Shown piece after piece: positions 4,815 to 61,448 of a stretch of DNA of 64,000 nt (its first letter is position 1; the number at the start of each line of letters is the position of its first letter). The DNA comes from Candidatus Buchananbacteria bacterium CG10_big_fil_rev_8_21_14_0_10_33_19 (GTDB lineage: Bacteria; Patescibacteriota; Patescibacteriia; 2-01-FULL-39-33), in contig PEZY01000012.1 of NCBI GenBank assembly GCA_002773855.1, forward strand, positions 161,570-225,569, in the 5' to 3' direction. The translations under genes were made by a program, and so were the position numbers. A model generated the notes under the pieces. The model was given only the letters and a program-made list of their open reading frames with translations. It ran no database searches and had not been told where the DNA came from.

Positions 4815-5939
4815 CTATTTGTATTGTAAAAAAGTTTGTTTCAGCATTTTGGCTTTAGAGAATTTTGCTGTGACATAATTTTTAGCTTGATTGGCTAGCT
4901 CTAAACTTTCAGTTTTATGATCAATTAAATATTTTATTTTATCGGCCAAGTCTTTATAGTTTTTAGGTTCTATTAAAATGCCGTTTTTATTATTTATCAT
5001 TTCTGGCACGCCACCAACATTAGTAGCGATAATTGGCAGGTTAGCAGTCATCGCTTCTAAAATAGAATAAGGCAGGCCTTCTTTAGTGGAGGTTGATACA
5101 TAGATATCCAAAGCTTTTAAATATTGTGAAGCTTGATCATGTTTACCAAGTAGTAAAAAATTATTTTTTAAATCTAGTTTGGTAATTAATTCTTCTAAAT
5201 CTGGTCTGAGGTTGCCATCGCCAATCACAACTCCAAGAATATCACTATTTTTTAATTCACCAACAGCGCGAATAAAATATTCTAAGCCCTTGGTTTGATA
5301 AAAATTAGCTACGGTACCAATAATAATTTTGTCAGTTGGTAGATTTAATTTTACTCTAGCTTCATCAGAATCTAGAAAATTTAGATTACTGATATCTAAA
5401 CCATTATAAATAACCACTGAATTTTTAATTTTTATGTTATGGTCTTTAGCTGATTGTTTGTCATAGTTTGATAAAAATATAATAGTATCTTTGTATTTGG
5501 CGGTTAACTTCTCAGTTAAATGATAAATTTTTTTATAAAGAAGAGAAATATTTTCATTAAAAGCCCAGCCATGAACCGTGTGAATTAGTTTACTTTTTTT
5601 AAGACCACTTAATCTGAAAGCATAAGAACCTTGAATACTGGGCTTACTGCTACTGGTATGGATAATATCAGGCTTTGTGGTTTTAAATAATCGGCGTAAT
5701 TCCCAAACAGCCAAAATATCATTAATCGGAGATATTGGCCTAACCATATATTTTAATTTAATTGTTTTAATGCCTTTAGATTCTAACTTATTAATTAGAG
5801 TCTCATCATGGTTTTTGCCAACCGCTACACTAATCTCGTAATTTAAAGCCCCAGGACTAGTTACTAGATCGTAGAGGTATTTTTGAGCACCACCCCATTC
5901 GGTTTGGGTAATGACATATAAAATTTTCTGCTTTTTCAT
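4815..5939 (-). CDS. Glycosyltransferase family 4 (GT-B)
   Basis: C-terminal EGLPYSILEAMTANLPIIATNVGGVPEM motif typical of GT4/GT1. Confidence 0.8.
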   Translation of the reverse strand: MKKQKILYVITQTEWGGAQKYLYDLVTSPGALNYEISVAVGKNHDETLINKLESKGIKTIKLKYMVRPISPINDILAVWELRRLFKTTKPDIIHTSSSKPSIQGSYAFRLSGLKKSKLIHTVHGWAFNENISLLYKKIYHLTEKLTAKYKDTIIFLSNYDKQSAKDHNIKIKNSVVIYNGLDISNLNFLDSDEARVKLNLPTDKIIIGTVANFYQTKGLEYFIRAVGELKNSDILGVVIGDGNLRPDLEELITKLDLKNNFLLLGKHDQASQYLKALDIYVSTSTKEGLPYSILEAMTANLPIIATNVGGVPEMINNKNGILIEPKNYKDLADKIKYLIDHKTESLELANQAKNYVTAKFSKAKMLKQTFLQYK

Positions 5940-46981: not shown

Positions 46982-47323
46982 ATGCCAATTCAATTCATAT
47001 TAGTGATTTTAATTATTTTGGCAGTTTTAAGATTGCTTTATCAATTAAAAAATAAAAATATTGGCTTTAATCAGTTTTTTACTTGGCTAGTTATTTGGTT
47101 GGTGGCTATTGTAATTATTAGTCAACCAAAAATTACTACCTATTTAGCCACAATAGTTGGCATTGGTCGAGGTGTTGATTTGGCAATTTATGTTTCGATT
47201 ATTGTAATTTTTTATTTAATGTTTAGACTTTTACTGAGAATTGAAAAGATTGAAAAAGATATTACTAAAATTGTTAGGACTGATTCTTTGAAAAAAAATA
47301 ACGATCATGAAAATAAACACTAA
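46982..47323 (+). CDS. Small membrane protein (DUF2304-like GT2 partner)
   Basis: 113 aa, 3 TM segments, directly follows the GT2 gene. Confidence 0.35.
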   Translation: MPIQFILVILIILAVLRLLYQLKNKNIGFNQFFTWLVIWLVAIVIISQPKITTYLATIVGIGRGVDLAIYVSIIVIFYLMFRLLLRIEKIEKDITKIVRTDSLKKNNDHENKH

Positions 47324-49224: not shown

Positions 49225-49263
49225 TTTGATTAAATTACATTGGTACTTTTTTAGAAAAAGTAC

Positions 49264-49495
49264 CACAAAAATCGCGAGCGATGAGAAAATTCAGGTAAGG
49301 CTGTACCGAATCTACGCTAATTTCCGAACTCGCCATTTTCTTCTATTTGTATGTGTAGAAAATGTCTCAAACATGCGGAAATTTTATTTATAGACGATTC
49401 ATAAACGCTTGATTCGCTCCAGCCTTACAACAGAATTTTTCATATGCTCGCACTATTTATGAAGATGCTTTGAAGATATTACACAGATTATTTCA
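49264..49495 (+). ncRNA. Candidate small non-coding RNA or gene remnant: GC-richer ~230-nt ORF-free segment between an inverted repeat and an intrinsic terminator
   Basis: About 38-40% GC against about 30% for the surroundings. No ORF longer than 17 codons. Bounded by a 10-bp-stem hairpin (49242-49264) and the terminator at 49496-49520. Confidence 0.2.
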
Positions 49496-49520
49496 ACTGG
49501 ATAGTAAATCCAGTTTTTTT
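49496..49520 (+). terminator. Intrinsic terminator (ACTGGAT-AGTAA-ATCCAGT plus T7) overlapping the alr stop codon
   Basis: Perfect 7-bp stem plus U-tract. Confidence 0.5.
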
Positions 49521-50649
49521 ATATATAAAATCTTGGTAGGCTTTCTCGTAGTCTAGTAACTATTTCGTAGTTGATGGTATTAGCCCAGTCGGCTAACTGT
49601 TCGACAGTAATTATCTCAGATTGTTGTTGACCAATTAAAACTACCTCATCACCGCTTTTTACGTGACCACAATCAGTAATATCTATAATTGTGACATTCA
49701 TGCAAATACGGCCTAAGACTGGGGCTTTCTTACCGTTCACCAAAACATAAGCTTTATTGCTTAGTTTTCGATCGTAGCCGTCGTAGTAACCAACGGGAAT
49801 AGTGGCGGCGGTGGTAGGGCGAGTAGTTTTGTAAGTACAGCCATAACCAACCAAACTGTTTTCCGGTATGTTCTTTATTTGACCGACAATGGTTTTAAAT
49901 TCTAAGGCTGGTTGTAGAATCATGTTTTTTTCTTTAGTCAATTTGGCAACATCCGGGCCAGGGTAATAGCCGTAAACAGAAATACCAGGTCTAATTAAAT
50001 TACCAATATTATCTCTCGATAGTAATACCGAAGCACTTTTATGGCAGTGAATAATTAAATCATGACCAATGATTTTTTTTAGATTATTGATAGCGATTTT
50101 AAATTTTTCTAATTGTCGGTTGAAATAAGCAGGGTTAAGTGGATCGTCAGAATTGGCAAAGTGTGTCGCTAGGCCTTCGATTTTTATATTAGGTAGTTTT
50201 AATATTTCTTTAGCTAAATTAGATGAGTGCTCTAGAAGAACGCCATGTCGGTGCATGCCAGTATCTATTTTTAGGTGAATATTAGCAGTTTGATTTCTAG
50301 ACTTACCAAGATCTGATAATTTTTTAGCGTAATTAATATTGCTAATAAATAATCTAAGATTTAAATCAAAAATTTTTTCTAATTCATATTCAGCTACAAA
50401 GCCAATAACTAAAATAGGATGATTAATGCCAGCAGATCTAACTCTTTGGGCTTCTTCTGTAGAATTAACAGATAACCATTCAACACCAGATTCAATAAGT
50501 ATTTTAGTAGTTTCTATTAAGCCATGGCCGTAAGCATTGGCTTTAACACAAGGAGAAATTATGGTGTTTGGACCATTTATTTCTCGTATTGTTTTGATGT
50601 TATGCGCTATTTTAGCTTTAGAGATTTCGATCCAGGCTAGGTGGTTCAT
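49519..50649 (-). CDS. alr: Alanine racemase
   Basis: PLP-binding motif VKANAYGHG near the N-terminus; ~376 aa. Confidence 0.9.
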   Translation of the reverse strand: MNHLAWIEISKAKIAHNIKTIREINGPNTIISPCVKANAYGHGLIETTKILIESGVEWLSVNSTEEAQRVRSAGINHPILVIGFVAEYELEKIFDLNLRLFISNINYAKKLSDLGKSRNQTANIHLKIDTGMHRHGVLLEHSSNLAKEILKLPNIKIEGLATHFANSDDPLNPAYFNRQLEKFKIAINNLKKIIGHDLIIHCHKSASVLLSRDNIGNLIRPGISVYGYYPGPDVAKLTKEKNMILQPALEFKTIVGQIKNIPENSLVGYGCTYKTTRPTTAATIPVGYYDGYDRKLSNKAYVLVNGKKAPVLGRICMNVTIIDITDCGHVKSGDEVVLIGQQQSEIITVEQLADWANTINYEIVTRLRESLPRFYI

Positions 50650-50791: not shown

Positions 50792-51307
50792 TTAATTGGT
50801 AGAAAAAAACATGTTAATTAATACACCGGCATAGTAGCTAATGACAATGACCATCGTAGCTGTTAATAAATGCTCAAATACCATTTTTGCCGGACTCATT
50901 TTATTTGATTTAGCAATGATTAAGCTAAGTATTGTTAATAAAAATATTCCCCAAAGACAACTAATCAGTACCGCTGTTTGGAGACTAAATAAAACTATCG
51001 GGATAATAAAAGTGATAGCAAATACAAATTTTGATAAAAAGGTAGCAATAGTGGCTTGCCAAACAGCTCGTGGGTGCTTACCATCAGTAGATTCCTCTGA
51101 GATATGTATACCAAAAGCATCAGACATGGCATCGGCAATAGCAATAGTTAGGACACCGCCTAAAACGGCTAATTTTGAGCCGGTGCTTTCTAATAGACCG
51201 ATCATTAGGCCTAGAGTGGTAATTACCCCAGATGTTAGGCCAAAATTAAGCCCAGATTTTAAAGAGTCGTTTAATTTAATGAAGGTTTTTTTCTTTGACC
51301 AAAACAT
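50792..51307 (-). CDS. Small polytopic membrane protein, VIT1/CCC1-like
   Basis: GLTSGVITTLGLMIGL ... AIADAMSDAFG pattern; 171 aa. Confidence 0.45.
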   Translation of the reverse strand: MFWSKKKTFIKLNDSLKSGLNFGLTSGVITTLGLMIGLLESTGSKLAVLGGVLTIAIADAMSDAFGIHISEESTDGKHPRAVWQATIATFLSKFVFAITFIIPIVLFSLQTAVLISCLWGIFLLTILSLIIAKSNKMSPAKMVFEHLLTATMVIVISYYAGVLINMFFSTN

Positions 51308-51388
51308 AGTTTAATATTAGTTTGTTAAATACATTATATCACATAAATAACAATACTATTGCTATTTATTGAGTTACTAGGTCTTGTA

Positions 51389-51417
51389 TTGACAAAGTTT
51401 TATATATATGTTAATAT
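51389..51417 (+). promoter_or_regulatory. Strong sigma70-like promoter: TTGACA - 17 nt - TAATAT
   Basis: -35 at 51389-51394 and -10 at 51412-51417. The -10 overlaps the six-frame-track start at 51408, so the real start is more likely the ATG at 51480. Confidence 0.5.
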
Positions 51418-51479
51418 ATAAAGTTACTAGAGTAACAATTGTTCATTTCAATGTTATAACTCGAAAGGAATTAATTGAG

Positions 51480-51839
51480 ATGGGTAGACCCAGAAGTCGT
51501 AGAATTTTTTATACCAATTGGCAAGAGGCCAGTGTGGCTACTAGAAAACTTGGTATTACTAGTTATCTGGATTATAAGCGGAGATACAAGGAGGATGCGA
51601 GGTTACCGTCTAATCCCAATACGTTTTATTCAGATTTTCCTGGGCGGCCGATGTTTTTAAGGGGAGAATCTAAGAATATTTATTCAACCTGGCAAGAGGC
51701 CAGTGTGGTTGCCAAAAAACTTGGCATTGTTAAGTGCTTGGATTATAATCGGAGGCATAAGGAGGATGCGAGGTTACCGTCTAATCCCAATACGTTTTAT
51801 TCAGATTTTCCTGGGTGGAAAATTTTTTTGAGTAAATAA
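51480..51839 (+). CDS. Small protein made of two tandem ~50-aa repeats (W-QEAS-V-KLGI-DY-RR-KEDARLPSNPNTFYSDFPGW), resembling the repeat found N-terminal to some phage/ICE integrases
   Basis: Start moved from the track's 51408 to the ATG at 51480 (AAGGA 10 nt upstream). The two repeats are also near-identical at the DNA level, with a 57-nt identical stretch. Confidence 0.5.
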   Translation: MGRPRSRRIFYTNWQEASVATRKLGITSYLDYKRRYKEDARLPSNPNTFYSDFPGRPMFLRGESKNIYSTWQEASVVAKKLGIVKCLDYNRRHKEDARLPSNPNTFYSDFPGWKIFLSK

Positions 51840-51860
51840 GACTGGTAAATAATGACATAA

Positions 51861-51886
51861 CTGAGGTTTTTCGACCTCAGTTTTTT
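51861..51886 (+). terminator. Intrinsic terminator (CTGAGGT-TTTTCG-ACCTCAG plus T6)
   Basis: Stem-loop plus U-tract immediately after the repeat-protein stop. Confidence 0.6.
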
Positions 51887-51961
51887 ATTTTATCTAAAAT
51901 ATTGATCTAGACTTAAATAAGTTTAAAATATATACTTACAAATATTACTATAAATTAAATA

Positions 51962-53119
51962 ATGCATAATATTAGAGACAAAAAAGTAGCCATTGTGGTG
52001 TGTGCTTGGCCGCCTAGTGGTGGTGGGATTGGTAATAATGCTAGTTACCATTTACATTACTTAAAACAACTGGGTTACAAGGCCCAGGCTTTTACGCCGC
52101 AGTATAAAAATATTTCTATTATTAGTGATCCAGCTATTGAATACTTGCCAGTAACTTTGCCAATCGGTAAGGCTGGTTTTATTTTCTCATTGTATAAAAA
52201 ATTAAAAGACTTTGATATTATTCATCTTTATTATCCGTTTTTTGGTACGGACATAATAATTTTGTTTTTTAAATTATTGAATAGGAATAAAAAAATAATT
52301 GTTCATTATCAAATGGATCCAGTAGGACGAGGTTATCAAAAAATTATTTTTAAAATTCACATTAAAATATTTTTACCTTTAATTGTTAAGGTTAGTAATA
52401 AGATATTTGTTTTATCTTGGGATAACGCTAGACATACGTATTTAAATACGTATTTAAATACGTATAATAAAAAATTTATTGAAATCCCAAATGGAATTGA
52501 CACCAGTATATTTAAAATAAAAACAAAAAATATTGATCTAGCTGGCCAATATAACATTACAAGTAAAAATAAATTATTAATTTTTGCTGGCGGTTTGGAT
52601 GACCAGCACTTCTTTAAGGGGGTTGATGTTTTAATTAGGGCATTTGATAAAATATCAAAAAATAATAAAGAGGTTAAGTTAATGATTATCGGTGATGGTA
52701 ATAGAAAGAAATTTTATGAAAGATTAGTTGATGATTTCGGATTGGGTGAGCGAGTTATTTTTACCGGTTGGATTGATAATAAAAAATTGGCGGACTATTA
52801 TAATTTGGGCAGTGTTTTTGTTTTACCATCTACCGAGAGAACTGAAAGTTTTGGTATTGTAATAGCTGAGGCCCAGGCTTGTGGTTTGCCAGCTATTGTG
52901 TCGAACTGGCCGGGTAGTCGTTTAACTATTGAAGATGGCAAAACAGGGTTATTAGTGGAACCTAAAAATGAAAATGATTTGACTAATAAAATTATCAGAT
53001 TATTAAATGATAATGATTTAAGACAGGCTATGAGTAGAAAGGCTATAGTTCGAGCTAACGAAAAATATTCTTGGGACTCTATTATAATCAAAATTGATTC
53101 TGTCTATAAAAATTTATGA
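51962..53119 (+). CDS. Glycosyltransferase family 4
   Basis: ESFGIVIAEAQACGLPAIVSNWPGS. Confidence 0.8.
   Translation: MHNIRDKKVAIVVCAWPPSGGGIGNNASYHLHYLKQLGYKAQAFTPQYKNISIISDPAIEYLPVTLPIGKAGFIFSLYKKLKDFDIIHLYYPFFGTDIIILFFKLLNRNKKIIVHYQMDPVGRGYQKIIFKIHIKIFLPLIVKVSNKIFVLSWDNARHTYLNTYLNTYNKKFIEIPNGIDTSIFKIKTKNIDLAGQYNITSKNKLLIFAGGLDDQHFFKGVDVLIRAFDKISKNNKEVKLMIIGDGNRKKFYERLVDDFGLGERVIFTGWIDNKKLADYYNLGSVFVLPSTERTESFGIVIAEAQACGLPAIVSNWPGSRLTIEDGKTGLLVEPKNENDLTNKIIRLLNDNDLRQAMSRKAIVRANEKYSWDSIIIKIDSVYKNL
52435..52468 (+). repeat. In-frame 12-nt tandem repeat (TACGTATTTAAA x2.8) encoding TYLNTYLNTY inside the GT4 gene
   Basis: Seen directly in the sequence. Confidence 0.6.
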
Positions 53120-54685: not shown

Positions 54686-55744
54686 ATGGAAGCTATTTTG
54701 GTAATTTTAATTTTATTCATTGTATTTTTTGCAGTAGCTGTAGGCGGACTGTTTTTATTTTTTAATAAGAAATTTACCGAACTTCAAGCTAGTAAAAAAG
54801 ATGATCAATCATTTTTAATGTTGCAGGAAAGGATTAAAGAACTTAATCAAACAATGGATGTTAAATTGTCTGACTCAACAAGACAAATGCAAACTCAATT
54901 TAGTCATAGCTTAAGTGTGATTAAAGATGTAGCCGAAAAAGCTGCTCAGATTCAAGAAACTAATAAACAAGTTAAAGACTTTTCTCAGCAATTATTTGAT
55001 TTGAAACGAGTCTTAACTTCCCAAAAGCAAAGAGGTAATCTGGGAGAAGCCGGATTACATTTAGTTTTAGAAAATATATTGCCACCATCAGCTTACCAGT
55101 TTCAATATAAAATTAATGATGGCGCAGTAGTAGATGCAGCAATTTTTACCAAAGATGGGGTGATCCCAGTTGATGCTAAATTTTCTTTGGAGAATTATAA
55201 TCGAATTGTTAATGAAGACGATGAAGATCGCAGAAAGCAATTAGAGAAAGAATTTAAAAATGATTTAAAGAAGCGAATTGATGAAACTGCTAAATATATT
55301 CAACCAAATAAAGGGACAATGGATTTTGCCTTTATGTTTATTCCAGCTGAAGCTATTTATTATGATTTATTAGTAAATGAAGTGGGAGCGGTTAAGGTGG
55401 ACACCGGTGGTTTAATTGATTATGCTTTCAAAGAAAAAAAAGTTATAATAGTATCACCAACGACTTTTGCGGCTTATTTACAAACTGTGTTACAGGGTTT
55501 AAGAGCTTTAAAAATTGAAGGTCAGGCTAAAGATATAATTAAAAATGTTGAGAAGTTGCAAAGACATTTAATTTCCTATGATGATCGATTACAGAAATTG
55601 GGTAATAGTTTAAACACCACAGTCAATGCTTATAATATTTCTTACAAAGAATTTAATAAAATTGATAAAGACATTGTAAAAATTACTGATCAAGAATCAA
55701 AGATAGATATTTTAGAAATTGATAATCCAAGATTCGAAAAATAA
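54686..55744 (+). CDS. rmuC: DNA recombination protein RmuC
   Basis: N-terminal TM, long coiled-coil, C-terminal FMFIPAEAIYYDLL motif. Confidence 0.75.
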   Translation: MEAILVILILFIVFFAVAVGGLFLFFNKKFTELQASKKDDQSFLMLQERIKELNQTMDVKLSDSTRQMQTQFSHSLSVIKDVAEKAAQIQETNKQVKDFSQQLFDLKRVLTSQKQRGNLGEAGLHLVLENILPPSAYQFQYKINDGAVVDAAIFTKDGVIPVDAKFSLENYNRIVNEDDEDRRKQLEKEFKNDLKKRIDETAKYIQPNKGTMDFAFMFIPAEAIYYDLLVNEVGAVKVDTGGLIDYAFKEKKVIIVSPTTFAAYLQTVLQGLRALKIEGQAKDIIKNVEKLQRHLISYDDRLQKLGNSLNTTVNAYNISYKEFNKIDKDIVKITDQESKIDILEIDNPRFEK

Positions 55745-56111
55745 CTACAAAAATATGGATTACGCTAAGCAATTTTTGGGAAAAATAGTTTCAGCGAAGA
55801 TAGATAGACCAATGGGGTCTATTCATCCCACTCACGGCTTCGCTTATACGGTTAATTATGACTTTATTCCTAATACTAGTGCTCCAGATGGTGAAGAAGT
55901 GGATGTTTATGTAGTGGGTGTTTTTGAACCAATAGAAAAGTTTACTGGTAAATGTATTGCCGTTATTCATCGAACTAATGACAATGACGATAAGGTTATT
56001 TTGGCACCGGAAGATGTTGATTATACTGATAAACAGATAATGGCTTTGACAGAATTTCAAGAAAGATTTTTTAAATCAAAGGTAATTAAAAAAAATAGAA
56101 AAATAATTTAA
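55719..56111 (+). CDS. Truncated family-I inorganic pyrophosphatase-like protein, lacking the N-terminal ~35 residues of canonical PPase
   Basis: [21 protein letters not shown] against PPase [31 protein letters not shown] against [22 protein letters not shown] against IAHFFEHY. The start overlaps the rmuC 3' end by 26 nt. Confidence 0.45.
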   Translation: [130 protein letters not shown]

Positions 56112-56461
56112 TGAAATTTTATTATATAATAGCTGTATTAGGTATTCCATTTATTTTAGGTGGCTGTAGTAGTCAGACACAGGTGGTTAATACCGATAAT
56201 AATTTAATTATTGCTGATGAGGAATTTTGTATTGCTCACACCGAATCAAATATCAGTAGTGATGAGGCTTATGGTGTAGCTAAAAATAGTGAATGTGCCA
56301 TGGTAGGCACATTTAAAGAAGATTGTAGCTGTGATCCAGAGACATATATTTGCACTTTTGAGATAGAAACTGATAAACCAGATTGTAGTCCTGTTTGTTT
56401 GGTTGATTTAAAAACCAGTGAAGCAAGAGTTGATTGGCGTTGTAATCCTGACTCCCAGTAG
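56111..56461 (+). CDS. Small Cys-rich secreted lipoprotein (lipobox ILGGC, 10 Cys in the mature part)
   Basis: Signal peptide plus LGGCSS; 116 aa. Confidence 0.5.
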   Translation: MKFYYIIAVLGIPFILGGCSSQTQVVNTDNNLIIADEEFCIAHTESNISSDEAYGVAKNSECAMVGTFKEDCSCDPETYICTFEIETDKPDCSPVCLVDLKTSEARVDWRCNPDSQ

Positions 56462-60650: not shown

Positions 60651-61448
60651 ATGGAAGGTCAAATGATGGATAAAAAACACTATATGCCTAAAAAAATTAT
60701 GATAATTTTTTTGAGCGTAGTATTAGTGCTTTTGGGAATTTATTTAATTTCTTTAACTAGAAATTCGTTAAAGAGTTATAGCTATATAGGTAAATCACCA
60801 GAATTTAAAAATATTATAACAGTAGATGGTAGTGGTAAGGTAACTGCTAAATCCGATGTGGCTATAATTAATGCTGGAGTTGTGACTGAGAAATTAACAG
60901 TAGAGCAAGCGCAAAAAGAGAACACCGATAAAATGAATGCTATTGTTAAGGCTTTAAAAGATGAATTTAAGATTGCTGATAGTGATATTAAAACTAATCA
61001 GTATGGTATTAATCCTAGATATGATTGGAGCGATGGCACACAACGAATTATTGGCTATACAGTTAATCAGTCTGTAGAAATTAAAGTGAGAGATTTTAGT
61101 AAAATCGGTGATATTTTGGCGCGGTCCGCTGAACTAGGTACTAATAGTTTGAATGGTCCAAATTTTACTATTGACGATCCAGAAGAGTTTAAGGCTCAAG
61201 CTAGGGAAAAGGCCATAGCACAAGCTAAAGAAAAGGCTAAAGTTTTGTCTGATCAAGTGGGAATTAAATTGGGATCAATCGTTAATTTCTCAGAAAATTT
61301 TAATGGTTCATCTGGACCAATACTTTATGCTAACGATATGGCTTATGGTTTAGGTGGTGGTGGTGAAAAATCATTACCAGTACCAACTATTGAGGTTGGC
61401 AGCGAAGAAGTAGCTGTTAGTGTTAGTATAAGCTATGAAATAAGATAA
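60651..61448 (+). CDS. SIMPL-domain (DUF541/BP26-like) protein with N-terminal TM anchor
   Basis: SIMPL-like layout with GxxxNAGVxTE start; 265 aa. Confidence 0.65.
   Translation: MEGQMMDKKHYMPKKIMIIFLSVVLVLLGIYLISLTRNSLKSYSYIGKSPEFKNIITVDGSGKVTAKSDVAIINAGVVTEKLTVEQAQKENTDKMNAIVKALKDEFKIADSDIKTNQYGINPRYDWSDGTQRIIGYTVNQSVEIKVRDFSKIGDILARSAELGTNSLNGPNFTIDDPEEFKAQAREKAIAQAKEKAKVLSDQVGIKLGSIVNFSENFNGSSGPILYANDMAYGLGGGGEKSLPVPTIEVGSEEVAVSVSISYEIR

Follow-up and report, generated by a model that had tools for sequence, protein, structure and literature searches.

A small two-repeat INT_rpt (PF14882) gene, likely a recent single-gene acquisition, in a Candidatus Buchananbacteria genome

The stretch of DNA analysed here, 64,000 nucleotides of contig PEZY01000012.1 (positions 161,570 to 225,569, forward strand) from Candidatus Buchananbacteria bacterium CG10_big_fil_rev_8_21_14_0_10_33_19 and hereafter called the window, contains a genuine small gene of the INT_rpt family (Pfam PF14882) at 51480-51839. 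Its 119-aa product consists of two INT_rpt repeats (57 aa) from end to end, with no other domain. The gene adds a minimal new member to a family already known, though functionally uncharacterised, and does not represent a new kind of system. The features that define it, all on the plus strand, are as follows.

51408-51839, plus strand: open reading frame (ORF) as delimited mechanically, 143 aa
51464-51469, plus strand: Shine-Dalgarno-like motif AAAGGA, 10 nt upstream of ATG 51480, read from the sequence
51480-51839, plus strand: coding sequence from the supported start codon, ATG 51480; 119 aa plus stop
51504-51674, plus strand: INT_rpt module 1, residues 9-65
51675-51836, plus strand: INT_rpt module 2, residues 66-119
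51588-51644 and 51759-51815, plus strand: exact identical run of 57 nt, present once in each module

Translation is taken to start at ATG 51480 because three lines of evidence agree on this codon: an independent gene caller picked it on a 948-bp Joint Genome Institute (JGI) contig that is 100% identical to the locus (P0001/L002), 34 two-repeat homologues begin a few residues ahead of their first repeat in an N-terminal alignment, as this start would have it, and the AAAGGA motif lies 10 nt upstream. An earlier note on this DNA, made from the sequence alone, had proposed the same codon. The alternative ATG at 51408 was rejected, as it falls within the promoter match described below and is backed neither by the homologues nor by the independent gene call. 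The resulting protein is small and strongly basic (14.1 kDa, isoelectric point (pI) 10.1, 23 lysine and arginine against 11 aspartate and glutamate residues), and its N-terminus, MGRPRSRR, is rich in arginine.

Membership in the family rests on a Pfam match in two stretches, which scores 51.8 bits where the gathering cutoff is 26.5 (E = 9.5e-14) and bears out the suggestion of the earlier note that the repeat is integrase-associated. PF14882 is described as the 'Integrase repeat unit' and was earlier named PHINT_rpt; NCBI gives relatives the product name 'integrase repeat-containing protein', and NCBIfam holds no family for the 119-aa protein itself. Searched exhaustively with phmmer, 1.84 billion cluster representatives (50% identity clusters) yielded 904 matches at E <= 1e-3, 231 of them at E <= 1e-30. 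The source names of relatives point to Candidatus Parcubacteria/Paceibacterota and gammaproteobacteria. A repeat profile was built from 982 repeats, against which each of the two window units scores 93 bits, and arrays were mapped with it on 249 collected homologues. The window protein shares with PF14882 the motif Y-TW-EA---LGI-----Y---Y--D-RLP--P---Y-DFPGW--FLG at a period of 55-57 aa; it differs in having no integrase domain and in its two repeats, the smallest array found among the 155 of 249 homologues that consist of repeats only (2-14 repeats; exactly two in 38 of the 155).

The remaining architectures of the family are dominated by fusions to enzymes that act on nucleic acids, as seen in Pfam and NCBIfam scans of 139 homologues. 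In the helicase class, an N-terminal superfamily 2 (SF2) helicase of ~400 aa (ResIII/DEAD plus Helicase_C), which resembles the type I R-subunit, RadD and XPB, is followed by 3-11 repeats, and in the integrase class 6-17 repeats precede an Integrase_2/tyrosine-recombinase region of ~800 aa. ResIII was found 31 times, Helicase_C 39, Integrase_2 25, and sigma-70 and Mrr_cat three times each; RNase III with dsrm, a TnsA-like domain and PD-(D/E)XK are single cases, and a treble-clef zinc finger is another rare partner. Three large proteins have the unusual architecture of a sigma-70 factor (MzaA-like), an SF2 helicase and INT_rpt repeats in one chain (P0062, P0075 and P0158), and P0158 also carries RNase III and a dsRNA-binding motif. 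The repeat thus does occur N-terminal to integrases, as the earlier note suggested, and the match is not to an unrelated domain; the link to phage integrases that it also drew does not stand. Both integrase-class proteins tested (2/2) pass the NCBIfam equivalog model NF047926 for GmtZ, making these integrases GmtZ/VPA1269-type enzymes of Gamma-Mobile-Trio (GMT) islands, and tblastn against 50,697 phage genomes gave no INT_rpt match. GmtZ is the integrase of the mobile GMT islands, in whose description the INT_rpt repeats are not discussed (bioRxiv 10.1101/2023.03.28.534373). IMG/VR contains one INT_rpt locus only, and nine plasmid matches are VPA1269-family proteins or short 'integrase repeat-containing' ORFs. 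On the Pseudomonas putida plasmid pKF715B (L115 5986-7618), the gene for a protein of 161 aa annotated as 'integrase repeat-containing' runs right up to the start of an IS3-family transposase gene, which suggests a truncated GmtZ-type gene.

Within this family, the window repeats stand nearest to helicase-linked and stand-alone arrays (median 46% identity, 92-100 bits) and are slightly more distant from GmtZ arrays (median 42% identity, 77 bits); the maximum identity of the protein to a helicase fusion is 55.5%. The SF2 helicase fusions carry C-terminal arrays of 3-11 of the same modules and are the closest in sequence, whereas the window protein has no helicase domain and no adjoining helicase ORF, its upstream neighbour being a VIT-like gene on the opposite strand. 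A subset of the GmtZ/VPA1269 integrases (NF047926; Integrase_2 PF13009) carries 6-17 N-terminal INT_rpt modules; the window protein, in contrast, is made of repeats only, lacks the ~800-aa recombinase region and has no gmtX, gmtY or gmtZ nearby. With small basic DNA-binding or architectural proteins and with helix-turn-helix (HTH), HeH/SAP and NUMOD-like modules there is a functional analogy only, in small size, high pI and an HTH-like first half of the module, and these show no significant sequence or fold match to the window protein.

At the DNA level, the two copies form a direct repeat (51508-51661 and 51679-51832) of 154 nt with 83% identity and a period of 171 nt. The shared 57-nt identical stretch of the earlier note is present as given above, and beyond it the identity falls to 73%. 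The same note had called the protein repeats near-identical; there are two repeats, but their near-identity is confined to the C-terminal halves of the modules (KEDARLPSNPNTFYSDFPG), and overall 37 of 52 aligned residues are identical. Codon differences between the two are non-synonymous in 15 cases and synonymous in 4. Both modules keep, wherever aligned, all the positions that are at least 90% conserved in 35 two-repeat proteins, and the Y/A/Y/D/L/P/Y/F core is retained in both units, except that in module 1 an arginine replaces a tryptophan conserved in 82% of repeats (FPGR). The 57-nt identity may have arisen by recent intragenic gene conversion or unequal recombination, and the same process would alter repeat number in relatives. 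An example of such a change is found in two ENA proteins, of which P0004 lacks a single 56-aa INT_rpt unit of P0003 and is otherwise near-identical to it, the junction falling within an identical segment (L001 1212-1832). This is a repeat-number polymorphism produced by unequal recombination and shows that repeat number is dynamic; the window's 57-nt run fits with the process behind it, whether intragenic recombination or gene conversion.

Structure prediction yields a compact four-helix module, in which helices of 10, 10, 4 and 4 residues are arranged as helix-turn-helix-loop-helix-loop-helix. An AlphaFold model of a single module (residues 64-119) reached a predicted local distance difference test (pLDDT) value of 95.1 and a predicted template modelling (pTM) score of 0.79. 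For both modules together, the AlphaFold2 model made from the 35-sequence two-repeat alignment has a mean pLDDT of 88.9, lowest in the linker (77), and a pTM of 0.54. Since pLDDT is high while pTM is low in the two-module model, we infer two autonomous compact modules joined by a short flexible linker. The positions that are invariant across the 982 repeats belong to a hydrophobic and aromatic core (Y2, A8, Y23, L33, P37, Y41 and F50), and lysine and arginine are enriched in helix 2 and at the arginine before LP (positions 24-28 and 32, 41-75% lysine or arginine). The mean net charge per repeat is +1.6, and the median pI of the 35 two-repeat homologues is 9.6. The best fold matches in BFVD were to giant-virus SF2/DEXDc helicases, from Bodo saltans virus (E = 7e-5) and then Terrestrivirus and Catovirus, in agreement with the mention of giant-virus proteins in the earlier note. 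Pfam cross-matches of a consensus triple repeat to DUF3721, SRP19, MTIP_N, I-HmuI_NUMOD-like and Myb_DNA-binding_7 cover 15-20 residues or lie below threshold, and were not taken as homology.

The gene lies in an otherwise conserved chromosomal block. It forms an insulated unit between an alr/membrane-protein block and a GT4 block, as the earlier note had it, and comparison with related genomes delimits the DNA that is particular to the window.

49519-50649, minus strand: alanine racemase gene (alr)
50792-51307, minus strand: VIT1-like membrane protein gene
51309-51320, plus strand: AGTTTAATATTA beside the VIT start, matching the start of the ancestral spacer and resembling AGTTTAAAATAT at 51920-51931
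51321-51919, plus strand: lineage-specific insert with promoter, gene and terminator (~600 bp; approximate, boundaries set by eye from the alignment of relatives)
51920-51961, plus strand: retained ancestral spacer upstream of GT4, 42 nt (compared with L095, L090, L098 and L009)
51962-53119, plus strand: GT4 glycosyltransferase gene

Downstream, the order is GT4, VanZ-like, GT4 and RmuC, and the wider flanks encode glycosyltransferases, a sugar transferase, GtrA, an epimerase, a subtilase, PGK and enolase; in the scanned part (38988-62719), many ORFs are glycosyltransferase or envelope-polysaccharide genes. The first part of the window (1-38942) holds ~30 co-directional plus-strand ORFs with a persistently positive GC skew. 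The best genomic relative is a Candidatus Buchananbacteria metagenome-assembled genome (JAUSEE010000033, L009), whose alr is 68% identical and which is collinear with the window over 42.3-57.8 kb, gene for gene, at 54-82% amino-acid identity. A second indel separates the two, as ~1.9 kb of extra DNA lies between alr and a GT2 gene in the relative (L009 9128-11086), where the window has 295 bp (49225-49518).

The divergent VIT-like and GT4 genes are ~50-70 bp apart in the relatives (L009, L090/L091, L095 and L098; 60-70 bp when measured between tblastn match ends), compared with 654 bp in the window. The insert also differs in composition: the gene has a GC content of 40.3% in a window of ~31%, which places it in the top 1.1% of 360-nt windows, and its GC content at third codon positions is 38%, compared with 20-27% in twelve other ORFs. 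In eight other loci, INT_rpt homologues mostly have the composition of their hosts. Because the site is empty in the relatives (an argument from parsimony) and the composition is atypical, a recent acquisition of a single gene with its promoter and terminator, probably by horizontal transfer, is likely. The relatives read CAT-AGTTTAATATTATACTT, and the window has this motif by the VIT start and again after the terminator; AGTTTAATATTA and AGTTTAAAATAT may therefore be a short duplication flanking the insert, AT-rich and weak as it is. The acquired DNA does not appear to be part of any recognisable mobile element. Neither terminal inverted repeats nor a second copy in the window or in other loci were found, only this weak 12-bp AT-rich duplication, and the non-coding flanks of the insert match nothing across the 115 loci fetched or elsewhere in the window. 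A scan of 20 large flanking ORFs, covering ~12 kb either side (the ORFs 46982-47323, 55719-56461 and 60651-61448 lay outside the scan), gave no match to integrase, transposase, helicase or phage families and no gmtX/Y/Z genes, and a profile search of the six-frame translation detected no second INT_rpt in the 64 kb.

Elsewhere, eight short homologues sit in varied neighbourhoods composed of housekeeping genes, with an adjoining integrase in none. Six of them, listed below with their neighbours, stand alone in contigs resembling those of the Candidate Phyla Radiation (CPR), with no adjoining helicase or integrase.

L001: UDG, Fpg
L003: PBP, MurE, TGT
L005: Wzy_C, RmuC, GyrA
L008: L21, MraZ, RsmH
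L110: rpoB/C
L113: Ddl, UvrC, RmuC

In the other two, L111 (6289-7843) and L112 (5075-7294), the INT_rpt ORFs come directly after ResIII/Helicase_C ORFs, and the L112 contig is ridden with frameshifts and has many fragmented genes. Both are probably split or frameshifted helicase fusions, and counts of repeat-only proteins in metagenomes are therefore overestimated. INT_rpt genes recur beside mraZ-rsmH-PBP-murE of the dcw cluster (L003, L008 and L112) or a few kb from rmuC (the window, L005 and L113). Proximity to the dcw cluster, RmuC or D-Ala genes was considered as a functional link and set aside, as it probably reflects the macro-synteny of small, conserved CPR genomes.

The expression signals of the gene are recognisable as sequence patterns, again on the plus strand.

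51372-51380, plus strand: AGTTACTAG copy 1, ending 8 nt upstream of the -35 hexamer; part of a 17-nt direct repeat with 50-nt spacing
51389-51417, plus strand: sigma-70-like promoter match TTGACA-17-TAATAT, with TG upstream of the -10 hexamer; 10/12 consensus matches
51422-51430, plus strand: AGTTACTAG copy 2, directly downstream of the -10 hexamer; forms the palindrome GTTACTAGAGTAAC
51423-51436, plus strand: perfect palindrome GTTACTAGAGTAAC at the predicted transcription start; candidate operator
51859-51892, plus strand: intrinsic terminator; hairpin at 51859-51882 with a 10-bp stem and a 4-nt loop, then TTTTTTATTTT

The terminator, which the earlier note had called strong, is so by calculation: its hairpin has a folding free energy of -13.7 kcal/mol (z -5.4; 0/200 shuffles fold as well), starts 20 nt past the stop codon and has the make-up of a Rho-independent unit, and Rfam gave a sub-threshold match on the terminator only. 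The 9-mer AGTTACTAG has six copies in the window (at 5859, 17691, 33970, 49553, 51372 and 51422), compared with 0.21 expected from shuffles, and the palindrome GTTACTAGAGTAAC has one, compared with 0.03 expected. The layout of these two elements about the promoter is suggestive and would suit autoregulation, with the palindrome as a putative operator. A 13-nt inverted repeat, ATAAATAACAATA/TATTGCTATTTAT, is also found at 51343-51369 (92% complementary, 1-nt loop), between the VIT-like start and the INT_rpt promoter.

The reading that we favour, at roughly even probability, is that the gene encodes a small nucleic-acid-binding accessory protein, carried on a single-gene insert and possibly self-regulating. 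The product would be a minimal, catalytically inert INT_rpt protein in which two four-helix modules of ~50 aa, a short flexible linker and an arginine-rich tail are combined. Each module would bind nucleic acid, most likely double-stranded DNA, with the tandem copies adding avidity or footprint length. The protein would then be a small accessory factor that binds DNA, whether in an architectural role or as a transcription regulator, and could control its own expression through the two AGTTACTAG sites on either side of its promoter. The gene would have arrived recently, together with its own promoter and terminator, as an insertion among conserved cell-envelope and housekeeping genes on a Candidatus Buchananbacteria-like CPR chromosome. 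What points to nucleic-acid binding is that the arrays, where they do not stand alone, are fused almost only to enzymes acting on nucleic acids, so that a nucleic-acid substrate is the only trait common to the partners (helicases, tyrosine recombinases, sigma factors, restriction-type nucleases, RNase III and zinc fingers); the basic charge points the same way.

Several observations weigh against this interpretation. The logic of domain fusion is indirect, and the modules could bind protein, or RNA in place of DNA. No basic residue is invariant across the 982 repeats. In the PDB, Foldseek found no significant neighbour for either the two-module or the single-module model, a sequence-profile search gave noise only, and no solved structure of, or experiment on, any INT_rpt protein is known; the literature on PF14882, INT_rpt and 'integrase repeat' turned up catalogue mentions only. 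The loss of a tryptophan conserved in 82% of repeats could be a sign of decay in module 1. As for the promoter, which the earlier note had described as consensus and driving the gene, the TTGACA-17-TAATAT sequence is present, but such sites are no commoner than chance in this AT-rich window (12 found, 11.1 expected in shuffled sequence), and 51389-51417 is therefore to be read as a consensus match only. Of the six AGTTACTAG copies, four lie within unrelated ORFs and have no common flanking sequence, and a search of homologous loci for a shared upstream motif or palindrome revealed no common element. Lastly, the case for gain over loss of the gene depends on parsimony from relatives at only 62-73% amino-acid identity.

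Among the competing explanations, the modules may mediate protein-protein contacts, so that the product is not a DNA binder at all and serves as an adaptor for, or competitive modulator of, proteins encoded at other places in the genome, be they helicases or recombinases that carry INT_rpt, or RNA polymerase. This would agree with the mostly aromatic and hydrophobic conservation and with its want of an invariant basic residue, with the existence of sigma-70 fusions, and with the occurrence of helicase-INT_rpt genes in CPR-like contigs, which makes a partner in the source genome possible. We nonetheless consider it unlikely, given the strongly basic protein and the very different partner enzymes, which have in common only their substrate, and given that a conserved neighbouring partner gene is found in none of the eight contexts and an INT_rpt partner is absent from the 64-kb window. 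A decaying remnant of a larger helicase-INT_rpt or GmtZ-type gene, horizontally acquired, trimmed and now functionless or being lost, would have precedents in the database 'stand-alone' ORFs that are pieces of split helicase genes (L111 and L112) and in the plasmid ORF that abuts an IS3 element in Pseudomonas; it would also account for the tryptophan-to-arginine change in module 1, the excess of non-synonymous repeat differences (15 compared with 4 codons) and the lack of the gene in all four relatives. That the gene is such a relic is rather improbable, however, as the ORF is intact and has its own Shine-Dalgarno-like motif, promoter-like site and strong terminator, every position conserved to at least 90% is kept in both modules where aligned, and AlphaFold confidence is high. 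Moreover, the flanks hold no helicase or integrase fragments, with a conserved VIT gene on the other strand as upstream neighbour, and among the repeat-only homologues the 38 of 155 with exactly two repeats include several on long contigs with no helicase nearby.

The suggestion of the earlier note that the gene is a remnant or regulator of a mobile element fares worst, and we regard a regulator or leftover of an integrative element at this locus (phage, integrative and conjugative element or GMT island) as very improbable. In its favour are the presence of the repeat family in GmtZ integrases, which belong to mobile GMT islands, the foreign GC content of the inserted gene and the possible 12-bp flanking duplication; against these stand an insert of only ~600 bp with a single gene and without terminal inverted repeats, non-coding flanks that match nothing in other loci, and the absence of gmtX/Y/Z, integrase, transposase and phage genes from the flanking ORFs scanned. 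The window has no other INT_rpt, its flanking gene order is the same as in the relatives, L009 included, and INT_rpt is absent from the 50,697 phage genomes. A bolder extension of the favoured, nucleic-acid-binding reading, which we hold to be quite doubtful, is that INT_rpt modules read DNA as a type of modular repeat not recognised until now: each four-helix unit would contact a few base pairs, and 2-17 units would set the length of the target. Stand-alone two-module proteins would then be self-contained, autoregulated transcription factors or nucleoid proteins spreading as single-gene cassettes among CPR bacteria, with the AGTTACTAG palindrome as operator.

PF14882, a widespread repeat, is used as an 'integrase' marker in virome pipelines (PMC11502894). 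Such use is unsafe, because helicase fusions and repeat-only proteins on ordinary chromosomes make up most of the closest relatives of the window protein, and sequenced phages essentially lack the family. The 119-aa two-module protein, with its high AlphaFold confidence, is a handy minimal construct for tests of fold and of nucleic-acid binding, and such tests would bear on target finding by GmtZ recombinases and helicase fusions. Taken alone, the locus is an ordinary accessory gene; it is chiefly of use as a compact model of INT_rpt function.

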